From an uncultured Gammaproteobacteria bacterium (GTDB lineage: Bacteria > Patescibacteriota > Microgenomatia > UBA8517), in contig CAZSXP010000002.1 in assembly GCA_964610395.1 (NCBI GenBank), forward strand, positions 10,192-74,191: a DNA stretch of 64,000 nt, given 5' to 3'. A program made the position numbers and the translations under genes. Positions 11,235-34,216 of this stretch are shown here, one piece after another. The notes under the pieces were generated by a model. That model had not been told where the DNA came from. It searched no databases and was given only the letters and a program-made list of their open reading frames with translations. How positions within the stretch are numbered: the stretch's first letter is position 1; each line of letters begins with the position of its first letter.

Positions 11235-11274
11235 CTATTTATTATAGCAGTTGATATGTGTTAAAATTTGGAAG

Positions 11275-11958: not shown

Positions 11959-11960
11959 TA

Positions 11961-12281: not shown

Positions 12282-12283
12282 CT

Positions 12284-12993: not shown

Positions 12994-13367
12994 ACACTAA
13001 TTCACTATTAGCTGGGGCTGGCGTTACTGGAGATGGAAAAATCTCTAATCCCGCCATCGGAAACACACTTAATCAGATGTTGCTTAATTTACCTGAGTTT
13101 TATTTTGCTGATTTAATCAGTAGAACTATTGGTCTTTTATTTGTTTTTGGAGCACTTGCTTTTTTCTTTATGTTTCTTTGGGGGGCAATTACTTGGATAT
13201 TATCTGGTGGGGATAAAGCTCATGTTGAAAACGCTAGAGGTAGAATTACAAACGCTTTAATTGGTTTTGTATTAATGATTGCAACATTTGCAATAGTAAA
13301 ACTTATAGAAGCCTTTTTTGGAATTGATATTTTGTCTATTGACATAGGGCCTTTAGTCATTCAATAA
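12990..13367 (+). CDS. pilin-like small two-TM protein, paralog 6
   Basis: Motif LSGGDKAHVENARGRITNALIGFVLMIATFAIVKLIEAFFGIDIL. Confidence 0.5.
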   Translation: MNTNSLLAGAGVTGDGKISNPAIGNTLNQMLLNLPEFYFADLISRTIGLLFVFGALAFFFMFLWGAITWILSGGDKAHVENARGRITNALIGFVLMIATFAIVKLIEAFFGIDILSIDIGPLVIQ

Positions 13368-13380
13368 TACATATATAAAC

Positions 13381-13737
13381 ATGAATTTACTTGCAAGCGC
13401 AAATTATATAGCTCAAACAACAATTGATATTGGCAATAAAACAAAGTTGGGTGGTTTTGGTAATGCAACAGATTTAAGAATTGAGAATATGGTTTCAGGT
13501 TTTATTGGATTGATTTTAGTAATTGCAGGTTTAGCTTTCTTCTTTATTTTAGTTATTGGTGGAATTAAGTGGATTGTCTCAGGAGGAGACAAAGCTCACA
13601 CAGAAGGTGCTAGAAATCAAATTACAGCGGCTCTTGTCGGTTTAGTTATAGTTTTCTCTGCTTGGGCAATAGTTGCATTAATCAAATCATTCTTTGGAAT
13701 AGATCTTTTAAAGCTAACTATTCCATCTGGACAATAA
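13381..13737 (+). CDS. pilin-like small two-TM protein, paralog 7
   Basis: Motif VSGGDKAHTEGARNQITAALVGLVIVFSAWAIVALIKSFFGIDLL; closest to paralog 6. Confidence 0.5.
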   Translation: MNLLASANYIAQTTIDIGNKTKLGGFGNATDLRIENMVSGFIGLILVIAGLAFFFILVIGGIKWIVSGGDKAHTEGARNQITAALVGLVIVFSAWAIVALIKSFFGIDLLKLTIPSGQ

Positions 13738-13786
13738 ATAATCTTCTCTTGCTCAATTTTATTCTTTAGTCTAAACTTACTTTTAT

Positions 13787-14065
13787 ATGGCAAGTCCTGC
13801 ACCGTTATCAGCATTAGAAGACGTTTTTGGAAGTGTAGTTACTTCCCTTCTTGCGTTAGGTGGAATAGTTTTATTTTTAATGCTTCTGTCGGGTGGGTTT
13901 AAATATTTAACGTCTGGAGGTGACCCAAAGGCAGTAGAAGGGGCAAAAAACACATTAACTTATGCAATAGGTGGTTTAGTTCTTTTGGCCTTCTCATATT
14001 TGATTTTAGTCATTATCGGAACATTTACAGGAGCCGATGTCACTAATTTTGTGATTACTAAATGA
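13787..14065 (+). CDS. pilin-like small two-TM protein, paralog 8
   Basis: Motif LTSGGDPKAVEGAKNTLTYAIGGLVLLAFSYLILVIIGTFTG. Confidence 0.5.
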   Translation: MASPAPLSALEDVFGSVVTSLLALGGIVLFLMLLSGGFKYLTSGGDPKAVEGAKNTLTYAIGGLVLLAFSYLILVIIGTFTGADVTNFVITK

Positions 14066-16602: not shown

Positions 16603-17388
16603 TCAACTTAAAAAATATTTTCCTCCACTTTCAATAATCATCCCTTTAATCCCCATAATTGATAAGGTAGATCCAATTTCTACAACACTTGCTCCTAATT
16701 TCTGTGCAATCTCATCAATTTCCATTGGTTCTAGTTGTAAAATCTTATATATTTGTTCTTCTTGTTTGTTTTCAAAAATCATATCTAATATTTCTACTTT
16801 CTTCTTTTTTATTCTTAGTATATCTGCCGCACTTGTGGCCATTTGGGCGTCGCCTGATTTTATTAATTCATTACATCCAACAGAAACGGAAGAATTAATT
16901 GACCCAGGAACTGCCCAAACTTTTTTGCTCATTTTCTTAGCTATTTTTGCAGTGACTAAACTACCACTATTTTCTCCTGCCTCAATTACCAAAACACCCA
17001 AGCTTGCAAGCCCTGCAACTATTTTATTTCTTTGTGGAAATTTCCAGAGATGAGGTTTGGCATTGTCTTCATATTCGGAAACTACAGATCCACCTGTTTT
17101 TATAATTTCTTTATATAATTTTTCATTTTCAGCTGGGTAAATTACATCCAAACCACAACCAAAAACTGCAATTGTTTTTCCTCCATAATCAACAGTTTTT
17201 TGATGAACTTCAGTGTCCACCCCATACATAAAACCAGAAATTGTAGTTATTCCATTCATCACAAAATCACTAATAAATTTATCAACGACTTCTCTACCAT
17301 ATCTAGTCATTCTTCTAGAACCAACAATAGCTATTGAGTTTTTATTAATTGTAATAGGGTCTACTCCCCTAAAATGTAAGGTTTTCAT
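16603..17388 (-). CDS. dprA: DNA-processing protein DprA (Smf)
   Basis: Rossmann-like DprA core (IAIVGSRRMTRYG...VFGCGLDVIYPAEN...GENSGSLVTAKIA...AVPG). Confidence 0.8.
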   Translation of the reverse strand: MKTLHFRGVDPITINKNSIAIVGSRRMTRYGREVVDKFISDFVMNGITTISGFMYGVDTEVHQKTVDYGGKTIAVFGCGLDVIYPAENEKLYKEIIKTGGSVVSEYEDNAKPHLWKFPQRNKIVAGLASLGVLVIEAGENSGSLVTAKIAKKMSKKVWAVPGSINSSVSVGCNELIKSGDAQMATSAADILRIKKKKVEILDMIFENKQEEQIYKILQLEPMEIDEIAQKLGASVVEIGSTLSIMGIKGMIIESGGKYFLS

Positions 17389-17734
17389 AGTGTGTGATTC
17401 TGTCTGTTTCTTCTACAATACATACTGCATCTATTTGGTATCTGTCGAAACTTTTAGCAATGTCAGGATTTGTTAATAAATACATTTCTGCAGTTCTTCG
17501 AACTTGCATGAGTTTATTTTTTCCTATCATTTCTTCAGGAGTTCCATAATCTTCTGTACTTTTTAGTTTCACTTCTACAAAAACGAGTATCTCGTTTTTG
17601 GAAACAATTATGTCTAGTTCACCCCATTTAGTTGAATTATTTTTATCTAAAATCTTATATCCTCTATCTTCTAGCCATTTAGCCGCCATATCTTCCCCCT
17701 CTTTTCCTTTAAGTTTGTTAAATTGCTTAATCAT
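17369..17734 (-). CDS. yraN: YraN-family (UPF0102) endonuclease-like protein
   Basis: GEDMAAKWLEDRGYKILDKN...ELDIIV...VFVEVK pattern. Confidence 0.65.
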   Translation of the reverse strand: MIKQFNKLKGKEGEDMAAKWLEDRGYKILDKNNSTKWGELDIIVSKNEILVFVEVKLKSTEDYGTPEEMIGKNKLMQVRRTAEMYLLTNPDIAKSFDRYQIDAVCIVEETDRITHYENLTF

Positions 17735-19265
17735 TTGTTCTCACTCTATATTGAAGTGCTTCTGCTACATGATTTGGATGTATTTTTTTCGAATCGGCAA
17801 GATCCGCAATTGTTTGACTGACTTTTATAAGTCTAAAATAAGTTCTGGCTGATAAATTGTAAGTATTAACTGCCTGCTTAAGCAGCAGTAAAGCATCTGG
17901 CGTTATATCTACAAATTTTTTAATATGTTTATTTTTCATATTTGAATTTGTATAAATATTTAAACCCTTAAATCTTTTATTTTGAATTTCTCTTGCCTTT
18001 ATTACCTGTTCTCGTATCTGTTTTGAGTTGTTAACTCTTCTTTCTTCTTTATTATTTATTAATTTGTTAATGTCGACGGCTGGTACATTTATGTGTAAAT
18101 CAATTCTATCCATCAGTGGACCCGACAGTTTACTTTGGTATTTCATAATCATACGAGGTGTACATTTGCATTCCTTTTTTGGGTCACCCAAGTATCCACA
18201 AGGGCAAGGATTAGCGGCAGCAATTAACATAAAACTAGCAGGAAAATTAACAGATCCTGCTATTCTTGTAATAGAAACTTCCCCATCTTCCATGGGTTGC
18301 CTTAATGCTTCAAGTGTTGACCTTGGAAATTCTGGAAATTCATCTAAAAACAAAACACCATTATGGGCAAGTGAAATTTCCCCTGGGTGTGGGTTTGTTC
18401 CTCCCCCAATTAACCCAATTCTACTAGTTGTATGGTGTGCAGTTCTAAATGGTCTTACTCTCACAAGTCCTTCACCTGCAGGGATTAAACCAGCTAGTGA
18501 AAATATTTTAGTAACTTCCAGTGCTTCTTCCTCATTAAGTGGCGGTAAAATGCCAGCTGAGGCCCTTGCAAGCATTGTTTTGCCGGCACCAGGAGATCCC
18601 ATCATAAAAATGTTATGTCCACCGGCTGCGGCAATAGTCATTGCTCTTTTTGCTGATTCTTGACCTATTATTTCATTAAAATCAAATTCGATTTGAGGTT
18701 CCTCAAATCGTCCCTCCGAAGCCTTGGCGGAGGAGGACATTTTCTTAATCTCTTTAACTCCATTTAAATGAGCAATTAATTCTAATAAAGATTTAACAGG
18801 ATAAACATTTATTCCAGATAAAACAGCAGCTTCGTTGGCCGAATCAAATGGCACAAATAAATTTTTAATTTTTAGAGCTTTTGCGGCCAGACCTAATAAA
18901 AACACACCCTTGGTGTGGCGGAGTCCTCCATCAAGTGATAGTTCACCATAAAAAAATGACTTTTCGGAAGGTAACTTCACATTTCCAAGTGAAGCTAAGA
19001 TTCCAATTGCAATTGGTAAATCATAAAGCGATCCTTCTTTTGGAATATCAGCAGGAGCAAGATTAACTACAATTTTTGAATTTGGAATATCGATATCAGA
19101 ATTAATTAAAGCAGTTTTTACTCTTTCTTTTGCCTCTTCTATTGATTTATTAGGAAGTCCTATTATAGAAAATCCAGGAAAACCTTTTTTAAAGACATTA
19201 ACCTCAACCTCTATTAAATTTGCTTCTAATCCAAAATGACTAGCAGATAGAATTTTAGTTAACAC
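17727..19265 (-). CDS. comM: YifB/ComM family Mg-chelatase-like AAA+ ATPase
   Basis: N-terminal ChlI-like domain, Walker A MMGSPGAGKTMLA, Walker B VLFLDEFPEF, C-terminal Mg-chelatase domain. Confidence 0.8.
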   Translation of the reverse strand: MLTKILSASHFGLEANLIEVEVNVFKKGFPGFSIIGLPNKSIEEAKERVKTALINSDIDIPNSKIVVNLAPADIPKEGSLYDLPIAIGILASLGNVKLPSEKSFFYGELSLDGGLRHTKGVFLLGLAAKALKIKNLFVPFDSANEAAVLSGINVYPVKSLLELIAHLNGVKEIKKMSSSAKASEGRFEEPQIEFDFNEIIGQESAKRAMTIAAAGGHNIFMMGSPGAGKTMLARASAGILPPLNEEEALEVTKIFSLAGLIPAGEGLVRVRPFRTAHHTTSRIGLIGGGTNPHPGEISLAHNGVLFLDEFPEFPRSTLEALRQPMEDGEVSITRIAGSVNFPASFMLIAAANPCPCGYLGDPKKECKCTPRMIMKYQSKLSGPLMDRIDLHINVPAVDINKLINNKEERRVNNSKQIREQVIKAREIQNKRFKGLNIYTNSNMKNKHIKKFVDITPDALLLLKQAVNTYNLSARTYFRLIKVSQTIADLADSKKIHPNHVAEALQYRVRTND

Positions 19266-20981: not shown

Positions 20982-22649
20982 ATGAAGTTGTCAAACTTAA
21001 CTAAAAAAATCAGTTTAATTCTTCTCTCTTCTTTATTAATTTTTAATTCAGTAATGGCTACGCCATTAGCTGCCCTCGCCGCCGATGAAGCCCCAAGCAC
21101 TTGGTACAACCAAGGTTTTACTGATTGGTATGCAAAAGTCTACGGTGACGAATCCCCCCCATCTGAAATTTTTGGAGAAAGATACACTGCGGCACAAGTC
21201 CAATGGATAATATATAGTCTTTTTGCTTTTCCTATAAATTTCCTTGGAAGCAAAGTTCAGGGCGCAGTTTCATGTCTATACGCATTTGGTCCAGGAAGTG
21301 TTTTTGATAAAGCTGAATGTATTACTCAAACAATGGAAGCTGTCAAAGATGCGTTTGAAGTATTAAAAATAAGTACCAGTATAGCTTATATTGATAATGG
21401 TCCACAGAATCTTGGTCAAGCAATCTTTTTTAACTATCAAAACAGACCGGTCTCAGGTGTAAGATATTTAAGTGATACATTATCAAGTCTAAACATAATA
21501 AAAACCGCAAATGCTCAAGGTTTTGGATACACGACTGCAATTGATGGCTTAAAAAATTACTGGCAAGGATTTAGAGATATTGCTTATGCCCTATCGGTAC
21601 TCGTAGTAATAGTTTTTGCTTTCATGATAATGTTCAGGGTCAAACTATCGCCACAATTAGTTATCTCAGTTCAATCTGCACTGCCTAAAATTGTTGTAGC
21701 ATTAATACTTGCAACTTTCTCATATGCGATAGCTGGTTTTGTAATAGATTTATCATATGTAGTTGGAGGTTTACTTGCTTCATTAATGAGCCTTGCTGGA
21801 TTTTCAACAGCAAACGCTAATGGAAGTGCCTTTCAGGAAGCATTTAAAGTAATTATGCCAATTGAAAATACTCAAGCGTTGGGTGGTTTTTATATATTAT
21901 TATGGATGTTTGCATACACAACTGTATTCTTTTTTGCATCAGTATGGGCTTTGATCAGCACAATTTCTGGTTTATCTGTCTATGGTTTTTTAGCAGGTAT
22001 TTTAATGGTCTTGATGTCAATTTGGGTATTAATATTAATGCTTTGGTACACAATTAAAGTGCCATGGATATTAATAAAAAACTTAATTAGTTTGTTCGTG
22101 TCAATTGTTGTAGGACCATTACAAATAGTTATTGGTGCATTGATTCCTACTATTGGATTTGGAGTCTGGTTTAAAAAGATCATAGCAGAAGCACTTGTTT
22201 TTCCATTAACTGGTTTGTTTATGTTTTTAGCTATCAAGACACTTATGGCTTCTTTCTCTGCTAGCACTGGGCAACTTTTCCATACAATGGATGGCACGTT
22301 ATGGTCACCTCCTATTTTAGGATCATCAGAAGATATGGCAGGTATACTTTGGTTGGCGGTTAGTTTTATGTTTATAACAATGATTCCAAAAGCAGTAGAT
22401 ATTATGAAAATGCTTGTTATGGGTGCTAAATTCGACTTCGGCAGTGCAATCGGTGAAGCAATGGCGCCACTTAAGATGGCTGGTGGAGCATATTCCTCTA
22501 CAAAACAGCAACAATATGAGTTAACTGCTAAACAAACAGGAACCACTCCATGGGAAGCAGCTAAATTAATGGAAGCAACTGGCGATAAAAAGGAAAAGGC
22601 TAAATATTGGTTTACTCAGGCACTACAACGATTTTCAAATTCACACTAA
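20982..22649 (+). CDS. polytopic membrane protein, VirB6/TrbL-like T4SS channel candidate
   Basis: Signal peptide plus periplasmic N-domain, then at least 7 TM helices and a hydrophilic C-tail. Confidence 0.35.
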   Translation: MKLSNLTKKISLILLSSLLIFNSVMATPLAALAADEAPSTWYNQGFTDWYAKVYGDESPPSEIFGERYTAAQVQWIIYSLFAFPINFLGSKVQGAVSCLYAFGPGSVFDKAECITQTMEAVKDAFEVLKISTSIAYIDNGPQNLGQAIFFNYQNRPVSGVRYLSDTLSSLNIIKTANAQGFGYTTAIDGLKNYWQGFRDIAYALSVLVVIVFAFMIMFRVKLSPQLVISVQSALPKIVVALILATFSYAIAGFVIDLSYVVGGLLASLMSLAGFSTANANGSAFQEAFKVIMPIENTQALGGFYILLWMFAYTTVFFFASVWALISTISGLSVYGFLAGILMVLMSIWVLILMLWYTIKVPWILIKNLISLFVSIVVGPLQIVIGALIPTIGFGVWFKKIIAEALVFPLTGLFMFLAIKTLMASFSASTGQLFHTMDGTLWSPPILGSSEDMAGILWLAVSFMFITMIPKAVDIMKMLVMGAKFDFGSAIGEAMAPLKMAGGAYSSTKQQQYELTAKQTGTTPWEAAKLMEATGDKKEKAKYWFTQALQRFSNSH

Positions 22650-24178: not shown

Positions 24179-24517
24179 TTACATTTTCTCAGCACATCTT
24201 TGGCAAATTCCTTTATAGATATGTTCCGCACATGTCCAATTCCGACAATTGACACATTGGTAAAGATCTTTCGGTTTAGACCAATTGTCACCATCTTCAT
24301 GGTAAGTGTCTAAACCCATTCGAAGCTCAATAGACTCCCTCATAGGTTCTCGGGCGGGTTTGTCGCAGATGTGACACTTGAACTTTCTACCAAGTTCTTG
24401 GACTTTTACCACTCTTTCTCTACGAGCGGACTCAAGAAATTCTTTTTTGCTTTTTTCCACTTCAGCCTCTCGGGCTTTTTCTTCCTCATCAATCTTTTTC
24501 TTCCAATCTTTTGTCAT
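24179..24517 (-). CDS. small K/E-rich protein with C-terminal Cys-rich zinc-ribbon
   Basis: CHIC...CVNC...CAEH...CQRC. Own SD-type RBS (AAGGAGG). Confidence 0.45.
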   Translation of the reverse strand: MTKDWKKKIDEEEKAREAEVEKSKKEFLESARRERVVKVQELGRKFKCHICDKPAREPMRESIELRMGLDTYHEDGDNWSKPKDLYQCVNCRNWTCAEHIYKGICQRCAEKM

Positions 24518-24677
24518 GGCACACCTCCTTAGTGTGTATTACATAAATTTTTACCGAGAAATGTCAAGTTGCAAGTGAATACTAACACAAAAAGGCAATT
24601 ACTTCAAGACTATAGGTATTTGGGGTTGGGGATTGACTTTTAGGGCAAAATAGATATACTAATAAGTACAAATTGCC

Positions 24678-25130
24678 TTAATTGGCACCCGAGAGCCCCG
24701 CAAGGGGCTCGTTTTTTGTCTCTTCTGTTGATATTAATTTTAATATCATTTTTTCTACTTCTCCAAACTGCTCTTTATTAAGATTCCCCATTTTTCTAAT
24801 CAATCGTTTTGAACTTAATATTCTAAGTTGTGACAGTATAACTGTTGACTTTCTATCTTTAAAATCAAAGGTAAAATAAAATTTTCCTTCTTTTACTTTT
24901 GAAGTTAGTGGAACACCCCAGAACATTCCTTTGTTAAACTTTCTAAAAATTAAAATTGGTCTTTCAAAATTTGTATTTTTTCCATCTATTTCATATCCGA
25001 CATTCACACCAACTGAACACCACCAAATTTCCTGTTCATGAAAAAACTTTTCTACACCCACACTATCAATCTGTGATTTTAATTTGTGCCAATTTTTGTA
25101 ATCTTTGACATACTTTGAAGCTTCTGTCAT
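24678..25130 (-). CDS. MazF/PemK-like toxin-family protein, copy 2
   Basis: Paralog of 20505..20951 (EIWWCSVGVNVGYEIDGKN..RPILIF...GVPLTSK...SQLRILSSKRL). C-terminal 12 codons are encoded by a hairpin. Confidence 0.5.
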   Translation of the reverse strand: MTEASKYVKDYKNWHKLKSQIDSVGVEKFFHEQEIWWCSVGVNVGYEIDGKNTNFERPILIFRKFNKGMFWGVPLTSKVKEGKFYFTFDFKDRKSTVILSQLRILSSKRLIRKMGNLNKEQFGEVEKMILKLISTEETKNEPLAGLSGAN

Positions 25131-25218
25131 GGTTGTATTTTACCTTAAATTAGTACAGAGAGAATGCATCACTTCGTGGGCAAAGTACCTAGTACTTAGT
25201 ATTGGTGGGATCAAAAAA

Positions 25219-25602
25219 CTATTCAAAATCTTTGATTTTAGCAAGAAGACTTTTGACAAGTGGGGGGAAATCTTTAATATCTTTATAAATTGACCTTACT
25301 TCGTCCTCTTTGTATGTATGTGTTGAAATATTTCTATGTTCTAAAAATTTAAACCAAACAACTGGATCATCTATTATCCCTATCCTTGCGGCTTCTCTAA
25401 TTACAGTTCTAATACCATAGGCGTCAACAACTTTATCTCTCAAAATAGCTTGCATAGTTTTCCATGACAGCTCAAAAGTAAATTCAAAGCGTTGGATTGT
25501 TGCGTCTTGGTTTATAATTTCTGGTGGTAACAACAATGCTTCGCCCAACCTTTCTACTGCCCTAGCTAAGTCTTTTATCAATTCTTGTGTTTTTTCCATC
25601 AA
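25219..25602 (-). CDS. hepT: HepT-like HEPN toxin (HI0074 nucleotidyltransferase substrate-binding family)
   Basis: HI0074-family pattern (...ATIQRFEFTFELSWKTMQ...) immediately downstream of the MntA-type NTase, overlapping by 4 nt. Confidence 0.55.
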   Translation of the reverse strand: MMEKTQELIKDLARAVERLGEALLLPPEIINQDATIQRFEFTFELSWKTMQAILRDKVVDAYGIRTVIREAARIGIIDDPVVWFKFLEHRNISTHTYKEDEVRSIYKDIKDFPPLVKSLLAKIKDFE

Positions 25603-25889
25603 TTTAAATAATAAACCTTTTTCATTGCAATTTCTTGAAATCTTTTAGATACTTTTGAGAAATCAACGACGTCAACCTTAAATGGTAAGTCAGAATTCTC
25701 AAATTCATCCTCCAGGTCAATTTTTGACATAATTGGAAGTTCTGATTTTGGTTCTACCCCTAAATCAATATCACTAAATTTCAAGTTATTCCCAATCGCT
25801 CGTGAGCCAAAAATAAATACCCTTGCACTTTTTGGATCAATATGTTTAAAAACAATCTTTTTAAATTCATCCAAATTAAAATCTGCCAT
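25599..25889 (-). CDS. mntA: MntA-like minimal nucleotidyltransferase antitoxin
   Basis: GSxxxG...SDIDL minimal NTase motif (IFGSRAIGNNLKFSDIDLGV). Confidence 0.6.
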   Translation of the reverse strand: MADFNLDEFKKIVFKHIDPKSARVFIFGSRAIGNNLKFSDIDLGVEPKSELPIMSKIDLEDEFENSDLPFKVDVVDFSKVSKRFQEIAMKKVYYLN

Positions 25890-25942
25890 AGTTGTATATT
25901 ACCTTAAATTAGTGCAGAGTACAAAGTACCTAGTACTTAGTA

Positions 25943-26269
25943 TTAGGAATAAGACAAAAATCTGATATCCAATCTACTATCCAAAGCCTCTGCAAGTTTT
26001 TGAAGGAAATTTACAGTTGGACTGATATTCCCCTTTTCTAATCTCGAAATTGCAGATTGAGTTGTACCTAGTTTTTTGGCAAGTTCTTTTTGAGAAAGAT
26101 CCTTCTTTCTTCTAACATCAATCATTGCCTGAAGCATTGCAAACTCAGGCTGTTGTCGTTCAAACTCTCTTCGTAAAGAAGAATTGTTTTTTAACACCCT
26201 TTTCTCCCAAACCAAGAAATCTTCATGTTGTCTTTTCTCAGGGGGAATATTTAAAACTTTTTTATTCAT
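25943..26269 (-). CDS. higA: HigA-like XRE-family HTH antitoxin
   Basis: HTH LSQKELAKKLGTTQSAISRLEKG, downstream of a HigB-like ORF. Confidence 0.6.
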   Translation of the reverse strand: MNKKVLNIPPEKRQHEDFLVWEKRVLKNNSSLRREFERQQPEFAMLQAMIDVRRKKDLSQKELAKKLGTTQSAISRLEKGNISPTVNFLQKLAEALDSRLDIRFLSYS

Positions 26270-26284
26270 ATATCGTATATGCTA

Positions 26285-26551
26285 TATTATTTCTTTTGCT
26301 CTGTCAATTGCTATTTTTAATTCTTTTGATGGAGTTTTTTGAGTTTTCTTTTTAAATACATGAAGCAAATAATAGGAATCTTTTACTTTTGTATAAAATA
26401 TTCGCAATGGATCTCTTCCTGTTACTCGCAATTCATATAAATTTTTGAATAGTTTTTTTGATTGTGGAGGTTTAAGAAATGGACCATTATCGATTAGTAA
26501 ATGTACTAATTTGTCAAAAATTATTTTTGTGAAAAGGATCCAATAGTTGCA
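26285..26551 (-). pseudogene. higB: HigB/RelE-family (Gp49-like) toxin ORF lacking any ATG/GTG/TTG start
   Basis: Manual translation ...FDKLVHLLIDNGPFLKPPQSKKLFKNLYELRVTGRDPLRIFYTKVKDSYYLLHVFKKKTQKTPSKELKIAIDRAKEII*. The open frame begins immediately after the stop of the upstream AbiEii gene. Confidence 0.45.
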
Positions 26552-27163
26552 CTAACCTAGTTTTACATTCTTCATAAAATATGTTTTTAAATCACCCCAA
26601 TTAAAATCTACTAACATATTTGGGTCTACATCATTTTCAGCATCATCGAAATAAATTAAGGACTTCTTTATCATTATTTCTCTTTCTTCAAAATTACCAA
26701 ACTTTTGATCATAGAATTTATATAAATTATCTAAACCAAATTTTTGAGCCAAGAAATAAATATCAACCAAATCACGTTTAGTACCTCGAGAGATTACGGT
26801 GTCTAGTTTTATGGCAGCCAAATCTCCAAGCGAGGCTAATTTTATATTTTCAAACGGTATTAAATCTTTTATGAGTGGATATTTATAGTAAAAAAGAGAA
26901 AACTTTATATTATTTATATCACCAATTATTGTTTGCCAATCCTTACTGAAAAGTTCTAAATTATAACTTTTCTCTAATTTTTGAATCCATTGATTTTCAT
27001 TAAACTCATGTTTTGTAAAAAAATCTAAATCTATAGATTTTCTGTGTCCAATTTGTAAAGATATTGCTGTGCCACCAGCTAAATATGTATCCAATGGCAG
27101 ACTATCATTATTAAATGAATTTAATAATTTGTGAGTTTCCTCAAGAATTGTATTAGTATACAT
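26552..27163 (-). CDS. AbiEii/AbiGii-family nucleotidyltransferase toxin
   Basis: LAGGTAISLQIGHRKSIDLDFF motif typical of AbiEii/DUF1814. Confidence 0.6.
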   Translation of the reverse strand: MYTNTILEETHKLLNSFNNDSLPLDTYLAGGTAISLQIGHRKSIDLDFFTKHEFNENQWIQKLEKSYNLELFSKDWQTIIGDINNIKFSLFYYKYPLIKDLIPFENIKLASLGDLAAIKLDTVISRGTKRDLVDIYFLAQKFGLDNLYKFYDQKFGNFEEREIMIKKSLIYFDDAENDVDPNMLVDFNWGDLKTYFMKNVKLG

Positions 27164-27377
27164 TTTGCCAAAAATTTTTAGACTTTAGTGATAATTTAGT
27201 TGTTTTTATTGTGTCTAGTATTATTTTTCTATCAAAATTTTTATTGATCCAATTTATTGCTTTCATATTTCCCATTTCTAATATCCTATTAATAAAATAT
27301 TTACTTTTTTTATTTATATCAGCTTCTTTTGTGTCTATGTCCCAAAAATATTTATGGAGTGATTTTGGTAATATCAT
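27153..27377 (-). CDS. small protein upstream of AbiEii (putative cognate antitoxin/partner)
   Basis: 74 aa with KSLHKYFWDIDTKE...SLKSKNFW, a pattern recurrent in small ORFs preceding AbiEii-like NTases. Overlaps the AbiEii start. Confidence 0.35.
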   Translation of the reverse strand: MILPKSLHKYFWDIDTKEADINKKSKYFINRILEMGNMKAINWINKNFDRKIILDTIKTTKLSLKSKNFWQNVY

Positions 27378-27459: not shown

Positions 27460-28494
27460 ATGGAACAACATCCAATACCACAACAAATAAGCTCATATCA
27501 ATTTAAATTGGTTGGGGATATGACATTAAAGCAATTTTTTCAAGTTGCAGGTGGTGTAATTGTTTCTTTAATTTTTTATTCCACCTCTTTGCATCCTTTG
27601 ATTAAATGGCCAATTATATTGTTTTCTGCAGGACTGGGCGCAGCTATGGCATTTTTACCTTTTGAAGAAAGACCTCTTGAAAAATGGATCATTGCCTTTT
27701 TTAGAAGTATTTATTCACCAACTTTATTTTCTTGGAAAAAAACAGACAAGCCACCTGTTTTTTACACAGAAAATGCACCAGCACCAGAAGTAAAGCTTGT
27801 TCAAACTGGTCCAACAGTTGAAAAAAATACAGAAAAATTAGAAGCGGCAGAAAAATCATTTTTACAAAAAATTGGGGGATTATTTAACAATAACCAACCA
27901 TCAACAATCAATAATCAAAGCGTAAACAAAACATCAACACCGATTGAACAACAAGTTATACCTACTACTTTTACGACGCATGTATCTTCTGTCCCAGTTA
28001 AAGATCAACAGCCAGCAATTAATAACAATTCTGCCCCTCTTTCTGTGCCTCAACAAATACCAACTGTAATTACTAAATCAGCACCACGTATAGTTGTTGA
28101 AGAATCTACCCCAATATCCCAACAACAGCCTCTAACTACCAAAATTGAGACCCAGAAAATTGAAGAGGAACCAATAACCACAAATTCTGTTGAATTTTCA
28201 GTTGATGCAGCACCACCATCTCCCCCTCTTGGACCAAACACTATTGTTGGTCAAGTAATGGATCAAGACAGAAAAATTATAGAAGGAGCTATACTTGAAA
28301 TTAAAGACTCGTCAAGTAGACCTGTTAGGGCTTTAAAAAGTAATAAAGCAGGACATTTTATAATAGTTACACCACTTTCTAATGGTAAATATGAAGTTAC
28401 TATTGAAAAAGATGGATTTGTGTTTGAACCTGTATCTTTTGAGGCAAAGGGAGAAATGATTCCACCAATAGCAATTAAAGGAACAAAAATATGA
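27460..28494 (+). CDS. PrgI/VirB3-like two-TM N-domain, Pro/Gln/Thr-rich linker, C-terminal carboxypeptidase-regulatory-like beta domain
   Basis: Two N-terminal TM helices (MTLKQFFQVAGGVIVSLIFY...IILFSAGLGAAMAFLPF), low-complexity linker, C-terminal GQVMDQDRKIIEGAILEIKD...GKYEVTIEKDGF. Directly upstream of the VirB4-like genes. Confidence 0.4.
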   Translation: MEQHPIPQQISSYQFKLVGDMTLKQFFQVAGGVIVSLIFYSTSLHPLIKWPIILFSAGLGAAMAFLPFEERPLEKWIIAFFRSIYSPTLFSWKKTDKPPVFYTENAPAPEVKLVQTGPTVEKNTEKLEAAEKSFLQKIGGLFNNNQPSTINNQSVNKTSTPIEQQVIPTTFTTHVSSVPVKDQQPAINNNSAPLSVPQQIPTVITKSAPRIVVEESTPISQQQPLTTKIETQKIEEEPITTNSVEFSVDAAPPSPPLGPNTIVGQVMDQDRKIIEGAILEIKDSSSRPVRALKSNKAGHFIIVTPLSNGKYEVTIEKDGFVFEPVSFEAKGEMIPPIAIKGTKI

Positions 28495-29195
28495 ATGATT
28501 ATAAATTGAAATTCAGCTCCGCTATAAAAATTAAAAATTTTGTATCAAAAATTCCTTACTTTGGTACACCTGATGTTCCTTTAACCTCTACAACACAAAA
28601 CGCTCTTCCAATTGCAGATATTGTTGACGATGTTGTTTTATACAAGGATGGGGGAGCAGCAATTGTCCTTGAAACTTCATCATTAAACTTTGGTCTTCTC
28701 TCTGAAAAAGAACAGGGTGCTGTTGTTGCAGCATATGCTGCGCTTATTAATTCTTTGTCTTTTTCAATTCAAATTATGGTTAAAACACAAAGAAAAGATA
28801 TTACTGGTTATATTAAATTCTTTGACGAAGCAAGCAAAAAAATAACTAATCCAAAACTAGCTGCAATTACTGATGATTACAGACATTTTATAACTGAATC
28901 AATCAAGAAAAAGACTGTTTTAGGGAAAAGATTTTTCATAGTTATTCCTTTTAATCAACTTGAACTTGGCGTAGCAAAGTCAGCCCAATCTATAATTAAA
29001 AGGGGGCCTCTTCCTTTTCCTAAAGATTATGTTGTTAAAAAAGCAAAGGTTACTCTTTTCCCCAAAAGGGATCATCTAATAAGACAGGCGGGTCGACTTG
29101 GTTTAAAATTAAAACAATTAAGTACACAACAATTAATTAATCTCTATTACGAAGTAAATAATCCTGAGCCACCAGCAGTAAAGAAAGACATATGA
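28491..29195 (+). CDS. hypothetical T4SS-associated protein, possibly the split-off N-terminal domain of VirB4
   Basis: Soluble 234 aa overlapping the VirB4-like ATPase start by 4 nt (ATGA). The ATPase ORF is shorter than typical VirB4. Confidence 0.3.
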   Translation: MNDYKLKFSSAIKIKNFVSKIPYFGTPDVPLTSTTQNALPIADIVDDVVLYKDGGAAIVLETSSLNFGLLSEKEQGAVVAAYAALINSLSFSIQIMVKTQRKDITGYIKFFDEASKKITNPKLAAITDDYRHFITESIKKKTVLGKRFFIVIPFNQLELGVAKSAQSIIKRGPLPFPKDYVVKKAKVTLFPKRDHLIRQAGRLGLKLKQLSTQQLINLYYEVNNPEPPAVKKDI

Positions 29196-30976
29196 CAAAC
29201 AATAAACCAATAATTACCAATCCAAACTTGTCTATCTCAAGTGGAGAAATGCTATTACATGATGCTATTGCGTCAGATAACATTGAAATTGATTTTGATT
29301 TTATCAAAGTAAATAATGTTTATTTTAGAACTATCTTTGTAGCAGGATATCCAAGGTTTGTTGCACCTGGATGGTTAGAATCCGTTGTTAATTTCAATTC
29401 ATCTCTTGATATGAGTTTTTATATATATCCAGTTGCAGGAAAATCTGTTCTTGATGATCTCAGACGTAAAATCGCAGAAATGGAGGCAGAACTTTCAACT
29501 GATATTCAAAGGGGTAAGATTGTTGATCCTGTAACCACTGCCAAACTTGAAGACGCGAGATCTCTACAAGAACAACTTGTTAAAGGAATTGAAAGATATT
29601 ATGAATTTTCATTCTACATTACAATCCCAGCCAATTCTTTAGATGAATTAAATAACATCACAAGACAAATACAGTCAACACTTGGCTCACTTTTAATCGT
29701 TGCAAAAAATGCATCGCTTGATCAAAAGGAAGGATTTTTGTCAACTGCTCCATATGGTAGAGACAGCCTTTCAATTACAAGAAACATGGACACAACCTCA
29801 GTGGCTACAACTTTTCCATTTACATCAGCAGAACTTTCTTCAGATACTGGTGTCTTGTATGGAATAAATTCACAAAACGAATCTTTTATTATTTTTGACA
29901 GATTCTCTTTGGAAAATGCAAACTTCACTATATTCGCCACTTCTGGAGCTGGTAAAAGTTACTTTGTTAAAACTGAAGCGGTTAGATCTTTGATGATCGG
30001 CACAGAAGTTATCATCCTAGACCCTGAAGCAGAATATAAAGCCCTTTGTGACGCTGTTGGCGGTCAGTATATATCTTTCTCGTATAATAGCCCTGCAAAA
30101 ATCAATCCATTTGATTTAGCCCAAATTAGAGAAGAAGGGGAGAACCAATTAGGTCTTAAGATTTTATCGCTTCATGCATTAATGAAAGTCATCATGGGAC
30201 AAATTAGCCCAACACAAGAAGCCATGCTTGATAGGGCACTTATCTTAACTTACAAAGCAAAGGGAATTACAAACGACCCAACAACCCAAACAAAAGAACC
30301 ACCTTTAATGGAAGATCTTTATAAAACATTGATTGGAATGGAAGTTCCTGAAGCACTTGATCTTGCGGCTCGTATTGAAAAATTTATCAGAGGTTCTTTC
30401 CAAGGAATATTTGACAAACAAACAAATGTTGACCTTAATAATCCATTTACAGTTTTTTCTGTTAAAGATATTCAGGATGCAATCCGTCCTATTGTCATGT
30501 TTATGATTCTTGACTACATTTGGACAAGGGTTAAAAGAGATATTAAAAGAAGAATATTAATTGTTGAGGAAGCATGGCAAATGATGAAATATCCAGACAC
30601 TGCTCAGTTTTTATGGTCTGTCGTTAAGAGAGCAAGGAAATACTATCTAGGACTTACTACAATCACTCAGGACGTTGAAGACTTCCTAAGTCAAGACATC
30701 GGGAAGGCAATTGTTACAAACTCTGCTTTACGGTTGCTTTTGAAACAATCTCCAACCGCCATAGATAAATTAGGAGAGATATTTTATTTATCGCAAGGGG
30801 AGAAGCAACTTCTAATGGCTGCAAATGTAGGAGAGGGAATTTTCTTTGCAGGACCACACCATGCACCAATTAGGATTGTTGCCTCAGAAAAAGAACATGC
30901 TTTGATTAATACCAAACCACAAGACAATCCAGCACCAACAATGCCAAACACTAAGGCGTGGAATAGACAGGATTAA
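29192..30976 (+). CDS. virB4: VirB4/TrbE/CagE-family type IV secretion ATPase
   Basis: Walker A FATSGAGKSYFVKTEAV, Walker B RILIVEEAWQMM, downstream GLTTITQDVEDF; overall VirB4 C-terminal ATPase-domain layout. Confidence 0.7.
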   Translation: MTNNKPIITNPNLSISSGEMLLHDAIASDNIEIDFDFIKVNNVYFRTIFVAGYPRFVAPGWLESVVNFNSSLDMSFYIYPVAGKSVLDDLRRKIAEMEAELSTDIQRGKIVDPVTTAKLEDARSLQEQLVKGIERYYEFSFYITIPANSLDELNNITRQIQSTLGSLLIVAKNASLDQKEGFLSTAPYGRDSLSITRNMDTTSVATTFPFTSAELSSDTGVLYGINSQNESFIIFDRFSLENANFTIFATSGAGKSYFVKTEAVRSLMIGTEVIILDPEAEYKALCDAVGGQYISFSYNSPAKINPFDLAQIREEGENQLGLKILSLHALMKVIMGQISPTQEAMLDRALILTYKAKGITNDPTTQTKEPPLMEDLYKTLIGMEVPEALDLAARIEKFIRGSFQGIFDKQTNVDLNNPFTVFSVKDIQDAIRPIVMFMILDYIWTRVKRDIKRRILIVEEAWQMMKYPDTAQFLWSVVKRARKYYLGLTTITQDVEDFLSQDIGKAIVTNSALRLLLKQSPTAIDKLGEIFYLSQGEKQLLMAANVGEGIFFAGPHHAPIRIVASEKEHALINTKPQDNPAPTMPNTKAWNRQD

Positions 30977-30978
30977 TT

Positions 30979-33615
30979 ATGAATCTCGATATAATCGTCT
31001 CACTTCAAACGGATTTTGGAAAAATATATGATGAAAATTTCAAGTTAAAAGACAAAACAAGATTAGCTGATTTTAATAAAGAGCTAGAAGAAGTTGGAAT
31101 TTCTTCAAAATTAACACCAAAAGAAATTGAATTAAAACTTCAACAAATCCATGAGTTATTAGAAAAAAAACAAGAACCTCTCACAAAAACAACATTAAAC
31201 AAAGATGAATCTGAACAATTTATAAAAGAAGCAGAACAAAGAGAAGCAAATATAAAAGAAACAAGGGAGGGTCAAACAAAAGCAGTAGAGGATTTTATAA
31301 AAAGAAATCAGGAACAAGTTTCAAAAGCCCAAGCGGTTCAAGAAAAACTAAAAGATAAAGTTGTTTATGCAAAAGTAATTATTCCAGATATACCTCCTTT
31401 AAACGAAACAGAGCAAAAAGATTTAGAAATTTTAAAAGAATTTGCACAAGGAGACGAAGTTACTAGAACAAAATTAATTGATGATTTGGCTACAAAAATA
31501 GAATCCAAATTAGAAAATGTTCCTGAAGAACAAAAAACATTAATCTCAAGAACTGCAGCCGTTGAAATAGTAGAAAAATTGGCAAAACCAGAAGTTGTAA
31601 TTGAAACTCAAGTCCAAACTGCAATTTTAAGAGCTGTTTCAGAAGATAAAACAGGCGTACTTCCGAAAGTTTTAAATCAAGATGATAATTTATTACTTAC
31701 TGCAAAAAGAGGGTCAACCCTTCTTGAATTAGAAAATAGAAATTCTGAATATTTAAGTAAAAATATAGCAAAAAATATTTTTGGGTCTAAACTTACCGCT
31801 TCAATATATGGCACTGAACAAATTCAAATCATTTTAAGTGAAACAAAAATTGAAGGGCAGACTACTCATCAAATTAATTTAGGAGACTTAAACCAAAATC
31901 AAATTCAAGTTTTAAATCATCAAAATGAATTATTAAATTCTGCACAACAATTTGGGGTTAATAAAATTGAAGGATTTTTTACGAATCAATCAAGAGTGTA
32001 TCTTGCAGAAAAAATTGCAAAGTTGCCTGCAGGTAGTGTAGTCAAAAAAACATATTCATCACCAATTACTCAAACAATTTTAGCAAGATATGGATTAGCT
32101 CAGCCGGTGGTCTGGGAAACGGTGGGGCAAACAGGTTTTGTCAAATTAGCAATGCAAATTGCTCCAGATACTGCTGGGCCAATGTTAAGTCTAGCTGGAA
32201 AAGCATTAGGAAAAGAATTTGTAAAACCAGTTGTTGGAAAAGTCGCAACACAAATTGCAGTAAAAACAGGTTTTGGTGCGACAATAACAACAGCACTTTC
32301 AAGTTTAGGTGCGGCGGCTGGACCAGTAGGTCTTGCCATAACAACAGCTATTGTGGCCGCAATTACGGCAGTGGGGAAGATGATTAACTGGCCAAAGATT
32401 AAGCAGTGGTTTATTGATAATAAAGAAGTATTTGTTGGACTAGGAGCTGGTGCAGGTTTATTAATCGGTGGACCAGTTGCAGGTTTAGTTACAGGGGGTT
32501 TACTTATGGCAGCAACAGGAACGCTTGGAGCTTTTGCGATGGGAGCTTTTGGAGTTTTTGGTTTTATAGGTAGATCAATAGGGATTGCAATTGCAACACC
32601 TGTAATTATTACCCTTTTAGTTCTCCCCCCACTTGTTGCTTTTATAATGCTTGTAATAAATAACAGTGCATATGTTGTTCCACCTTTTTCATCATCTTCA
32701 TTGACAGGGGCAGACAATCCTTATTTGTTAGTTACCAAAACGGCAGAGCCTAATAAAATTAGTAACCCAACTTCAAAAACAACAGTGACATACACTGTTT
32801 CAATTAAAGCTCTTAAGGCAGCACTAACAAATATTAAGCTTGTTTCCACAGAATGCACTGTTACTTCAAAAACTAAAACTGCTGTCTGTCCTCCTGAAAA
32901 CATTCCTGAATTACCTGCTGATTTATCAATTTCACCAACTAATCCATACGCTTTTACTTTTACGGTTAATTATAGTTCGTTTTATGCGGATTCATTGGTT
33001 TATGATTCAATTGAGATTAGTGCGGATTCAACAGAAAAAACCGGAATTACAACATCAGGATCAGCAACTCTTTGTATAGGTGATTGTCCTACAGATTGTG
33101 CAAAAGTATCAGATAACGCACAAAAATGGCCAAGTAATTTAAAATCAAATTCTGAAAACGCACTCGGTAAACTTTCTTCAAAATATCAAGGTTTTATGGC
33201 AAAAGTTTGTGCAAAAAATGAAGAGATAAATCTTTGTTATAACCCTCCACAAATTTCTCCTGGCTACTTTGCTTGGCATATCCATAATGCACAGGGTAAT
33301 AAATGTGATATTTATTTTAATGAGAAGGGTTTAAAGAGTGACAAGGATGCATTATTTTTAATAACACATGAATTAACACACCATATACAAAATATTAATA
33401 GTGGAAGCGTTGAACAATATGATAACACAGGTGCTTGGTCTGAAATATCATCAAGAGGTTTTTGTACATATTCCGATACAAAAGGAAGCATAACCGAATC
33501 TATGGCTGAAGCAAACGGTTTATATGCATCAGTTCCTTCTTGGGGTTCGTGTGCGTCAAATTATAAAAATTTATATCCTAAAAACTATATGTTTGCTAAG
33601 AAATTTATGGAATAA
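30979..33615 (+). CDS. large tripartite membrane protein: coiled-coil N-domain, Gly-zipper polytopic core, C-terminal Cys-rich extracellular HExxH (zincin-like) domain
   Basis: Residues 1-420 charged/coiled-coil; about 420-640 GxxxG-rich TM helices; C-terminal FLITHELTHHIQN with downstream E/D. Translationally coupled to virB4. Confidence 0.45.
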   Translation: MNLDIIVSLQTDFGKIYDENFKLKDKTRLADFNKELEEVGISSKLTPKEIELKLQQIHELLEKKQEPLTKTTLNKDESEQFIKEAEQREANIKETREGQTKAVEDFIKRNQEQVSKAQAVQEKLKDKVVYAKVIIPDIPPLNETEQKDLEILKEFAQGDEVTRTKLIDDLATKIESKLENVPEEQKTLISRTAAVEIVEKLAKPEVVIETQVQTAILRAVSEDKTGVLPKVLNQDDNLLLTAKRGSTLLELENRNSEYLSKNIAKNIFGSKLTASIYGTEQIQIILSETKIEGQTTHQINLGDLNQNQIQVLNHQNELLNSAQQFGVNKIEGFFTNQSRVYLAEKIAKLPAGSVVKKTYSSPITQTILARYGLAQPVVWETVGQTGFVKLAMQIAPDTAGPMLSLAGKALGKEFVKPVVGKVATQIAVKTGFGATITTALSSLGAAAGPVGLAITTAIVAAITAVGKMINWPKIKQWFIDNKEVFVGLGAGAGLLIGGPVAGLVTGGLLMAATGTLGAFAMGAFGVFGFIGRSIGIAIATPVIITLLVLPPLVAFIMLVINNSAYVVPPFSSSSLTGADNPYLLVTKTAEPNKISNPTSKTTVTYTVSIKALKAALTNIKLVSTECTVTSKTKTAVCPPENIPELPADLSISPTNPYAFTFTVNYSSFYADSLVYDSIEISADSTEKTGITTSGSATLCIGDCPTDCAKVSDNAQKWPSNLKSNSENALGKLSSKYQGFMAKVCAKNEEINLCYNPPQISPGYFAWHIHNAQGNKCDIYFNEKGLKSDKDALFLITHELTHHIQNINSGSVEQYDNTGAWSEISSRGFCTYSDTKGSITESMAEANGLYASVPSWGSCASNYKNLYPKNYMFAKKFME

Positions 33616-33622
33616 TATAAAA

Positions 33623-34216
33623 ATGAATAAAATAATTGAAATAATTAAAAGTAAAAAAATTACAATTTTAACTATTATTTCTTTATCTTTCTTAATATTT
33701 ATTGTGATAAAAATTAATAACAATAAACAAAATCCGATTGTTCAAGAAATTCCAACATCTACTCCAGTAAATAAAATTGCAGATTTTAATGAAATAATTC
33801 CTGGAAAAACAAGTTTGGAAAGAATTAATGAATTACTAGGTAAACCTTTAAACTCAACTGTTAGTGGTGAATTAAATGTTTCGAGCTATAAATCTACAAA
33901 TCAATATAGAAACCATAAAGTATATTCAAAAGACGGATTAGCTGAGCTTGTGGTAGAAGAAATAATTAATGGAAGTAAAACAGCTAATGATATTACAAAA
34001 ATTTATGGGATTGCTCCTGAAATGTTATACGAAAAAACGTTAAGTAGTGTGTTTAATTTATATATTTACCCCTCTAATGGAATTGCCTACTTAGGACACG
34101 AAGACGGGGGAATACTTGAAATTTGGTATTTTGTGCCAACAAACATTAATGACTTTATTATAAAATGGGGAAGAGATTACTCCAAAGTACCTTCAAAAGA
34201 AATTCCAAAATACTAA
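33623..34216 (+). CDS. hypothetical single-TM protein
   Basis: MNKIIEIIKSKKITILTIISLSFLIFIVI signal-anchor. The track start at 33524 overlaps the upstream gene. Confidence 0.4.
   Translation: MNKIIEIIKSKKITILTIISLSFLIFIVIKINNNKQNPIVQEIPTSTPVNKIADFNEIIPGKTSLERINELLGKPLNSTVSGELNVSSYKSTNQYRNHKVYSKDGLAELVVEEIINGSKTANDITKIYGIAPEMLYEKTLSSVFNLYIYPSNGIAYLGHEDGGILEIWYFVPTNINDFIIKWGRDYSKVPSKEIPKY

Follow-up and report, generated by a model that had tools for sequence, protein, structure and literature searches.

Type IV secretion systems (T4SSs) of the Patescibacteria are related to the MPF-FATA conjugation machinery of monoderm bacteria, are encoded near dnaA, lack a relaxase, and are accompanied by pilin arrays; among the Microgenomatia, recognizable VirB6 proteins are scarce and VirB1 is rarely encoded next to virB4 (PMC12102498). 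The wall hydrolases of Gram-positive T4SSs, such as PrgK and TraG, use M23 and CHAP domains (review PMC12857230). A peptidase gene after virB4 is already known from one Saccharibacterium, Southlakia epibionticum, in which SEML1_0007 lies directly after virB4 and encodes a protein of 1113 aa with a C-terminal Hedgehog/DD-peptidase fold (Wang 2023 supplementary tables; PMC12102498). Transposon sequencing found SEML1_0007 to be essential for epibiotic growth, and full-length structural neighbors of its product are annotated as M15B or M23 (Wang 2023; PMC12102498). Here we describe the gene that occupies this position, hereafter X, in a 64,000-nucleotide stretch of contig CAZSXP010000002.1 (the window; positions 10,192 to 74,191 of the forward strand, assembly GCA_964610395.1), which is deposited under the name of an uncultured Gammaproteobacteria bacterium and placed by GTDB in Patescibacteriota, Microgenomatia, UBA8517. 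X encodes a membrane protein of 878 aa that ends in a zincin domain and is followed by a small gene, Y. We propose, with a probability of roughly 0.55, that X is a T4SS-tethered, envelope-cutting enzyme analogous to VirB1, PrgK, TraG, and CwlT and that Y is its cognate regulator or inhibitor.

The placement and general plan of X resemble those of PrgK (pCF10), TraG (pIP501), CwlT (ICEBs1), and Orf14 (Tn916), which likewise are encoded near virB4 in a T4SS operon and are membrane-anchored with the catalytic part outside the cell. Moreover, sister cassettes of X carry domains of the PrgK/TraG class (CHAP and LytM/M23) or another wall hydrolase (Amidase_2). X differs from PrgK, TraG, and CwlT, however, by having a predicted cytoplasmic domain of ~385 residues and a multisegment membrane block in place of a single N-terminal anchor, by lacking an SLT or lysozyme domain, by being accompanied by a type-specific partner gene, and by carrying an HExxH zincin, a domain not known from these hydrolases. 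SEML1_0007 of the Saccharimonadia is also a large protein encoded directly after virB4 near dnaA/dnaN and terminating in a peptidase domain, and the M15B and M23 annotations of its structural neighbors suggest the same variable-tip design. By position and design alone, we liken it to X as a positional and architectural equivalent, although its C-terminal fold is LAS, M15-like rather than zincin and it belongs to another class of Patescibacteria. The literature that we searched does not describe the M34-like zincin family reported below, its size, the exchangeable-tip design, the strict co-inheritance of tip and partner, or the mosaicism of X.

The X gene and its parts are arranged as follows.

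30979..33615, + strand: X, a protein of 878 aa encoded by one unbroken open reading frame (translation of the window)
30979..32133, + strand: residues 1–385, predicted to be cytoplasmic and mostly helical, with modules N1 (residues 1–125) and N2 (residues 126–385) (AlphaFold2 [AF2] model and identity profiles)
32134..32688, + strand: residues 386–570, Gly/Ala-rich membrane block with three to five hydrophobic segments (hydropathy)
32644..32685, + strand: junction motif I556–P569 (IMLVINNSAYVVPP) at the predicted outer end of the last transmembrane (TM) helix, just before the variable exported part (alignments)
32710..33078, + strand: residues 578–700, Ig-like β-sandwich spacer with a conserved Cys pair, C626/C637 (AF2 and Foldseek)
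33091..33612, + strand: residues 705–878, Cys-rich domain of ~175 residues, probably a gluzincin and a distant relative of M34 (ATLF/PPEP) (AF2 and profiles)
33367..33381, + strand: HELTH motif, residues 797–801 (H797, E798, and H801), within FLITHELTHHIQN (invariant in alignments A2, A4, and A5)
33496..33510, + strand: E840-S-M-A-E844, aligned with EEFFAE of PPEP-1 and lethal factor (alignments)

An earlier reading of the window made from its letters alone (the sequence-only reading) had assigned ~230 C-terminal residues of X to an exported domain. The export stands, but the exported part comprises ~310 residues and two domains, a β-sandwich and a catalytic domain, which AF2 models with a predicted local distance difference test score (pLDDT) of 86.5 and a predicted TM-score (pTM) of 0.83. 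The strands of the β-sandwich occupy model residues 15–132 (pLDDT ~90), and its Foldseek matches are Spo0M, RbmA, CARDB, and adhesin Ig-like domains, together with a weak match to DUF7507. The catalytic domain is modeled as two N-terminal helices, three short strands, the HExxH helix (220–238 in model numbering), short helices at 241–248 and 251–255, a Glu-bearing helix at 270–282 (E272 and E276 correspond to E840 and E844), and C-terminal helices at 294–297 and 299–309. Because this is the order of elements expected of a gluzincin, the model points to a gluzincin fold.

Without exception, the 154 HExxH-type family members that were checked preserve the HExxH motif. Among them are 141 newly listed wider-family representatives that were examined for motifs, in all of which it lies ~80 residues from the C terminus. 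Across 33 diverse catalytic domains, the invariant positions are the H, E, and H of this motif, E840, four Cys residues, one Gly, and one Pro; C829, Y831, and E844 are invariant or nearly so. Judged from these patterns, H797 and H801 would be two of the zinc ligands and E798 the catalytic base, and the alignment with PPEP-1 suggests E844 as the third ligand, the corresponding residue of PPEP-1 being E185 (the Glu of FAE), which we take to be its third zinc ligand. Residues H797, E798, H801, and E844 are thereby predicted as catalytic residues. The zincin domain proposed in the sequence-only reading is borne out by these data, as are the acidic residues that it placed after HExxH, which are the conserved E840 and E844 of the downstream helix. 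Its count of 12 or more Cys residues in the exported part does not hold, since X has 10 (positions 626, 637, 699, 703, 707, 744, 753, 776, 829, and 858); some homologs have 12–14.

When a profile of the catalytic domain was compared with the sequences in the PDB, the best matches were four different M34 proteins, namely Clostridioides difficile Zmp1/PPEP-1 (2.2e-3), anthrax lethal factor (5.9e-3), PPEP-2 (0.012), and an ATLF-like protein (0.028), which ranked above an M3B peptidase and minigluzincins. By using hhalign, we compared the 33-domain alignment (A5) with an alignment built independently from five ATLF-like proteins encoded on Bacillus plasmids (A6) and obtained a probability of 92.4% (E 5.1e-7) over 87 columns, which extend from the HExxH helix through E-x-F-A-E to a C-terminal P-x-x-Y-x-F. 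Like X, the M34/ATLF proteins (lethal factor, PPEP-1/Zmp1, and PPEP-2) possess HExxH, a Tyr-containing loop, the third ligand in ExFAE, and PxxYxF, and theirs is a small domain (~175–200 aa) that is secreted and active at the cell surface. The tip of X is distinguished from them by eight Cys residues in the domain (probably four disulfides), by its fusion to a T4SS membrane protein, and by its occurrence in Patescibacteria rather than Bacillota. A Pfam scan gave no ATLF match for X itself, and Pfam and NCBIfam searches with whole X and three fragments gave nothing significant (best, eCIS_core at 0.15 and LIC13305_lipo at 0.069). On the strength of these comparisons, the tip appears to be a gluzincin that has its nearest known relatives in M34 and lies outside Pfam ATLF, which in practice would make it a new, large family.

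The zincin is one of several catalytic domains found at the end of this protein. Among the 26 close homologs, which have the N-terminal and membrane modules in common, 13 carry the zincin, seven a Pfam M23 domain, three CHAP, and two Amidase_2, and the remaining homolog carries a further type with an M23-reminiscent HLH(L/M)EF motif, which is also present at loci L008 and L016. All recognizable alternative tips are peptidoglycan hydrolases; X of the window has no peptidoglycan hydrolase domain in Pfam (SLT/lysozyme, CHAP/NlpC-P60, LytM/M23, or amidase), and such domains are located on its sister cassettes. Even genomes whose VirB4 is >90% identical to that of the window can differ in tip: L001 has a zincin subtype, L003 M23, and L004 CHAP. 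Directly ahead of the tips lies the most conserved stretch of X, the almost invariant junction INNSAYVVPP. Residues I556, I560, N561, A564, Y565, and P568 are invariant in alignment A1, the consensus in alignment A4 is ILFIINSGAYVVPP, and the pattern N-N/S-x-A-Y-x-x-P is present in 107 of the 141 listed representatives. The catalytic tip that follows the conserved junction is an exchangeable cassette.

The gene that follows X changes with the tip, as seen from the partners found with each catalytic type.

33623..34216, + strand: Y of the window, 197 aa, with an N-terminal TM anchor and an exo-domain of ~150 aa; its ATG is 7 nt after the X stop codon
L004 and L013: CHAP tip, partner of 219–222 aa
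L009, L010, and L014: β-sandwich plus M23 tip, partner of 332–338 aa
L008 and L016: M23-like (HLHxEF) tip, partner of 152–155 aa
L003: short M23 tip, partner of 399 aa, unrelated to the others
L023: Amidase_2 tip, partner of 384 aa, unrelated to the others

Homologs of Y follow X at 12 of 13 HExxH loci, very distant ones included (hidden Markov model [HMM] E values of 1e-18 to 3e-49), and at none of nine loci with other tips. Partner proteins belonging to different tip types show no similarity to one another at E <= 1e-3. A profile of Y found no relative in the PDB, and the Pfam matches of the partners are all below threshold: DUF4309 (6e-4) and BamE (0.09) for Y, and Big_5 as the sole match for the CHAP-type partner. 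The distribution of these genes indicates that tip and next gene form an exchangeable pair that is inherited together, and it makes Y a candidate inhibitor. Y was also considered as a Pro-Pro substrate of the zincin and was rejected because it has no conserved PP site.

Upstream of the junction, the N-terminal ~385–420 residues of X are charged and predicted to be helical, and residues 1–385 contain neither a signal peptide nor a TM segment. The AF2 model of residues 1–571 is only partly confident, with pLDDT values of 70–87 over residues 1–320, which are helical and include a long helix at 75–124. A Foldseek search of the PDB with this model revealed no similarity (best E 0.9), leaving the N-terminal domain without a known relative. 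A DnaJ domain is present at the N-terminal position in four of 62 diverse members of the wider family; because DnaJ works in the cytoplasm, the N terminus of X is likely to be cytoplasmic, in agreement with what the sequence-only reading proposed for its first ~420 residues.

The hydrophobic, Gly/Ala-rich stretch of the membrane block itself spans residues ~430–570, where AF2 pLDDT falls below 50, and the membrane block fragment matches no Pfam family even at E <= 10. This stretch had been described as rich in GxxxG/AxxxA helices. GxxxG is indeed in modest excess (7 versus 3.2 ± 1.5 in shuffled sequences), but small-xxx-small patterns are not enriched over shuffles and are explained by composition, and we therefore abandoned the idea of a Gly zipper. 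The predicted cytoplasmic side of the block includes a K-rich loop (residues 467–483) and R532, which is nearly invariant. Because of the positive-inside rule, and because the C-terminal domains are Cys-rich or cell wall hydrolases, we infer an N-in/C-out topology for X.

A word-indexed homolog search with X returned the 26 homologs mentioned above, 25 of them at E <= 1e-58; the same kind of search with the C-terminal domain alone returned one protein, and an N-terminal profile found nothing beyond the first set. In an exhaustive profile search that used the exported part as query against representatives of 50%-identity clusters, the family grew to 833 cluster representatives at E <= 1e-3, of which 242 were found at E <= 1e-30. 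The zincin family is thus large and, having no Pfam model, unannotated. Nearly all full-length representatives that were listed have a hydrophobic block just ahead of the β-sandwich.

The sequence-only reading had asked whether X is conserved next to VirB4 in related genomes, and all related loci that were examined keep this position. No departure from the order prgI-trsD-virB4-X-(Y)-dnaN-dnaA occurs in 17 loci (L001–L017) from about a dozen genomes. In seven further loci, including four of distant representatives, one of which has an N-terminal DnaJ domain, X follows virB4 or, where the contig ends early, stands beside dnaN; L027 is exceptional in that virB4 and X are separated by a single additional gene. 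When species-representative genomes were scanned, 12 X loci were recovered, which belong to Candidatus Woesebacteria, Candidatus Microgenomatus, and unclassified Patescibacteria metagenome-assembled genomes (MAGs). The fixed X operon is typical of Microgenomatia. A tblastn search of 72,556 plasmids and 50,697 phages gave no match to X, and we conclude that the gene does not belong to a mobile element.

Within this fixed setting, X itself is a mosaic. Identity to X of the window differs independently among the N1, N2, membrane, and exported modules: homolog P0002 is 87–92% identical in the N-terminal modules and has a different tip, and P0003 is 84–86% identical in the exported part and 23% in N2. 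Compared with the closest genome (L006), DNA identity is ~88–92% across prgI, trsD, virB4, and the first 125 codons of X, 50–60% from 31360 to ~32560 (N2 and the variable part of the membrane block), 86% over the end of the TM core and the β-sandwich, 60% in the middle of the zincin (33160–33460), 75–84% in Y, and about 72–93% in dnaN and dnaA. Because identity falls inside X and stays high in the flanks, X is a hot spot of recombination and diversification in a very conserved neighborhood.

The other T4SS components and candidates in the window are the following.

27460..28494, + strand: PrgI/VirB3-like membrane protein with a C-terminal CarboxypepD_reg-like β-sandwich, first gene of the operon (Pfam)
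28491..29195, + strand: TrsD/TraC-like protein of 234 aa, equivalent of a detached VirB4 N-terminal domain (NCBIfam)
29192..30976, + strand: VirB4-type T4SS ATPase of 594 aa (NCBIfam and Pfam)
11251..14065, + strand: array of seven to eight VirB2-like T4SS pilin genes (eight small open reading frames of 92–138 aa; PF18895 T4SS_pilin)
14062..16602, + strand: Cys-rich secreted protein of 846 aa with a signal peptide, encoded immediately beyond the pilin array (no Pfam family)
20982..22649, + strand: polytopic membrane protein of 555 aa with a signal peptide and an exo-domain of ~160 aa (hydropathy and synteny)

The operon consists of the PrgI/VirB3-like gene, the TrsD/TraC-like gene, virB4, X, and Y, and is followed by dnaN and dnaA on the opposite strand. 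The PrgI-like protein matches Pfam PrgI at 2.7e-6 (28.3 bits against a gathering threshold of 27) and CarboxypepD_reg at 3.2e-7, has two TM segments, and is encoded syntenically in all related loci. The VirB4 assignment of the sequence-only reading is genuine: the protein matches NCBIfam conju_CD1110 at 8.2e-111 (371.5 bits against a cut-off of 325) and the Pfam TraG P-loop family (P-loop_TraG) at 9.4e-35, and it is 76–95% identical to the VirB4 proteins of related genomes. The TrsD-like protein matches NCBIfam VirB4_plasma over positions 103–233 (9.6e-7) and TrsD (4.8e-5), both far under the curated cut-offs, and its orthologs carry the TraC-like family PF26593. Because VirB4 has only 594 aa and the preceding gene matches the N-terminal part of VirB4, the ATPase appears to be split over 28491..29195 and 29192..30976.

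The start of X had been reported to overlap the virB4 stop codon, which is incorrect, since the virB4 TAA ends at 30976 and the X ATG lies at 30979, leaving a spacer of 2 nt. The translational coupling that was deduced from the overlap loses that basis but remains plausible because an AGGA lies within the 3′ end of virB4 ahead of the X start. Cotranscription of X directly after virB4, with tight coupling, is likewise plausible.

In the pilin array, seven of eight open reading frames match PF18895 (E 7e-11 to 7e-4); the fourth (12218..12634) has no Pfam match. An array of this kind is among those reported for Microgenomatia, and the T4SS layout of the window matches the published picture of Patescibacteria T4SS loci. 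From its gene content, the system appears to be chromosomal, conjugation-derived, and MPF-FATA-like.

According to the envelope-cutting reading, X would be held in the membrane beside the VirB3/VirB4 module by its Gly/Ala-rich bundle of three to five segments, with the N-terminal ~385 residues in the cytoplasm. Beyond the junction, it would display an Ig-like stalk and a disulfide-rich zinc metallopeptidase outside the cell, and this tip would cleave peptide bonds in a wall layer to open a passage for the T4SS channel or pilus. The layer may be the cell's own peptidoglycan, the host envelope at the contact site, or both. Membrane-anchored Y most likely would bind the zincin and restrain or position it. 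We consider this role the most likely because M23, CHAP, or Amidase_2 fill the same position in close relatives. The DD-peptidase fold of the essential SEML1_0007 protein also favors a lytic role. It would give a concrete, testable role to a gene that always follows virB4 in a group in which VirB1 and VirB6 functions are reported to be poorly represented near virB4.

The main uncertainty concerns the substrate, since the alternative tips argue for peptidoglycan and the M34 kinship argues for protein. To our knowledge, all characterized M34 relatives cut proteins (mitogen-activated protein kinase kinases and surface adhesins) rather than peptidoglycan, and we know of no HExxH zincin that is an established T4SS wall hydrolase. 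The kinship itself is distant, in that only the C-terminal half of the catalytic domain aligns with M34 and the family consensus, although its best match in Pfam is ATLF (PF07737; 1.7e-3), scores 18.5 bits against a gathering threshold of 27.4. Foldseek searches of the PDB and BFVD with the exported two-domain model returned mostly β-sandwich matches, and the sole zincin matches were weak (M1 aminopeptidases at probabilities of 0.25–0.57 and a phage IrrE-like protein at a TM-score of 0.38). Furthermore, to the eye, the C-terminal 'GIMYGEGLFNPG' part of the 846-aa protein encoded after the pilin array resembles lysozyme/SLT domains, and this protein may be an additional wall hydrolase or the true VirB1 analog. 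Fast mosaic evolution of the kind seen in the alignments, which includes the cytoplasmic N2 module, would be unexpected for a housekeeping assembly factor. Apart from the alternative tips, these points weigh against an envelope-cutting role for X.

A surface effector, as the sequence-only reading had suggested, is a live minority alternative that we judge possible and well short of probable. The variable tip would then be aimed at the host envelope, either displayed on the membrane or released near INNSAYVVPP, and Y would protect the producer; hosts that have a proteinaceous sheath or S-layer might be the targets to which the zincin version is suited. Several properties of the locus fit such an arrangement: the conserved junction directly precedes the variable C-terminal domain, the tip type differs between genomes with VirB4 proteins that are >90% identical, the downstream gene changes strictly in step with the catalytic type, and identity drops sharply in X between flanks of ~88–92% DNA identity. 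A junction motif followed by an exchangeable C-terminal enzyme is likewise the design of CdiA-CT/CdiI, Rhs, the X-Tfe/X-Tfi pairs of the X-T4SS, and the Tae/Tai pairs of the type VI secretion system, and such polymorphic toxin cassettes also include wall-degrading catalytic types, a co-varying downstream gene, and local recombination in a conserved locus. In addition, epibiotic growth depends on the Patescibacteria T4SS, which has neither a relaxase nor a coupling protein, and the first member of the Microgenomatia to be cultured lives as an ectoparasite on a sheathed member of the Chloroflexota, which it reaches with pilus-like tubes (bioRxiv 10.64898/2026.06.21.733656). However, X is an integral membrane protein, a polytopic part of the machine itself rather than the soluble or exported substrate that polymorphic toxins are. 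Y-like partners could equally be regulators or scaffolds, host targeting leaves the hypervariability of cytoplasmic N2 unexplained, and the wall hydrolases of T4SSs from Gram-positive conjugative elements vary in domain content too without being toxins.

In a more speculative form of the effector proposal, which we put forward tentatively, the tip of X and Y would constitute an exchangeable "warhead plus safety catch" of a parasitic T4SS. Recombination between the TM-core junction and dnaN would swap the pair to match host envelopes, the zincin version being a protease specialized for host layers made of protein (sheaths, S-layers, or wall-anchored proteins), with Y as its inhibitor or immunity protein. 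Tip variation may track host range. A large part of bacterial diversity belongs to the Patescibacteria. Theirs is the sole T4SS known to be essential for survival of its producer, and yet its parts are mostly unannotated. The existence of a Microgenomatia co-culture (preprint) makes predictions on X directly testable.

It is doubtful that the zincin serves instead to process one specific surface protein, such as the VirB2-like pilin precursor, an adhesin, or Y, in pilus maturation or release from attachment. Its nearest relatives are the protein-cleaving M34 enzymes, PPEP genes reportedly adjoin the genes of their substrates, a pilin array of seven to eight genes is present in the same window, and Y accompanies the zincin in 12 of 13 loci. 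Nevertheless, the array lies 17 kb away, Y lacks a conserved Pro-Pro site, and close relatives have Amidase_2, CHAP, or M23 in the same slot; protein processing is beyond an amidase, which makes a protein substrate common to all tips unlikely.

Less probable still is the suggestion, also made in the sequence-only reading, that X is a channel-forming, VirB6-like inner-membrane subunit with an added peptidase. X directly follows virB4, and VirB6 genes of the conG, prgH, or orf15 type sit after virB4 in several Gram-positive elements. VirB6 homologs are reported to be scarce in Microgenomatia (PMC12102498), and the TM core, with its modest GxxxG excess, is the most conserved part of X. Against a channel function, X has no TrbL, VirB6, or PrgH match in Pfam or NCBIfam, the TM fragment lacks one even at E <= 10, the block offers only three to five short Gly/Ala-rich segments modeled at pLDDT <50, and the model of residues 1–571 has no fold match. 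A better candidate is the 555-aa polytopic protein encoded elsewhere in the window, which is conserved and syntenic, carries a signal peptide, has five to six hydrophobic or TM segments, belongs to no Pfam family that we could find, is 37% identical to the syntenic gene product in L003, and is also encoded at L008, L012, and L016. This candidate is likely to be a divergent VirB6 of the same system, a component reported to be scarce in Microgenomatia.

An artefact, namely open reading frames joined by a frameshift or misassembly (the fusion against which the sequence-only reading had cautioned) or a chance HExxH, can be dismissed because the same full-length architecture recurs in homologs (the 26 close ones, 25 of them at E <= 1e-58, and the 141 listed representatives) and the position after virB4 is conserved, and in addition HExxH is invariant and an open frame of this length has a chance probability of only ~1e-30 (p ~1.6e-30 at the base composition of the window, G+C ~33%), even though one relative, the X-Y chimera P0121, indicates that artefacts or deletions do occur in this family. 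In P0121 (468 aa), the X zincin is cut ~20 residues past HExxH, the Glu helix is lost, and the frame runs into the C-terminal half of a Y-type protein. A deletion, a pseudogene, or an error of assembly probably accounts for the chimera, which also displays X-Y adjacency in a further lineage.

Several smaller observations concern the surroundings of X. VirB4 carries an intein in some relatives: at L025 (1306–4989), it is a protein of 1227 aa with Intein_splicing and LAGLIDADG_3 domains. At L013, L014, and L015, only the C-terminal ~355 residues of VirB4 match, starting ~2.5 kb past trsD, and this gap between the trsD and virB4 matches suggests an intein-like insertion similar to that of L025. 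Within the PrgI-like gene, a segment encoding a low-complexity linker (27910..28209) has 60–73% DNA identity to L006 versus 83–91% elsewhere in the gene, and it appears from this comparison to be a second, smaller variable segment of the operon. Between the 555-aa VirB6 candidate and the T4SS operon lies a block of small genes (24179..27377, − strand) that includes a gene for an AbiEii-type nucleotidyltransferase toxin (26552..27163). This block is not the same in the window as in the related loci that were examined, and may thus represent a variable insertion. The pilin array is flanked (16603..19265 and 9546..11234, both − strand) by two competence-associated genes, dprA and a gene for a comM-like Mg-chelatase ATPase, and by a gene for a SpoIID-domain protein. 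Finally, L007, L008, and L017 (CAYSAY010000008.1, CAZGHY010000004.1, and CAZCXV010000007.1) derive from MAGs titled "uncultured Gammaproteobacteria bacterium" and hold a complete Patescibacteria-type prgI-trsD-virB4-X-dnaN-dnaA locus with a VirB4 that is 77–92% identical to that of the window; these Gammaproteobacteria labels are probably wrong.

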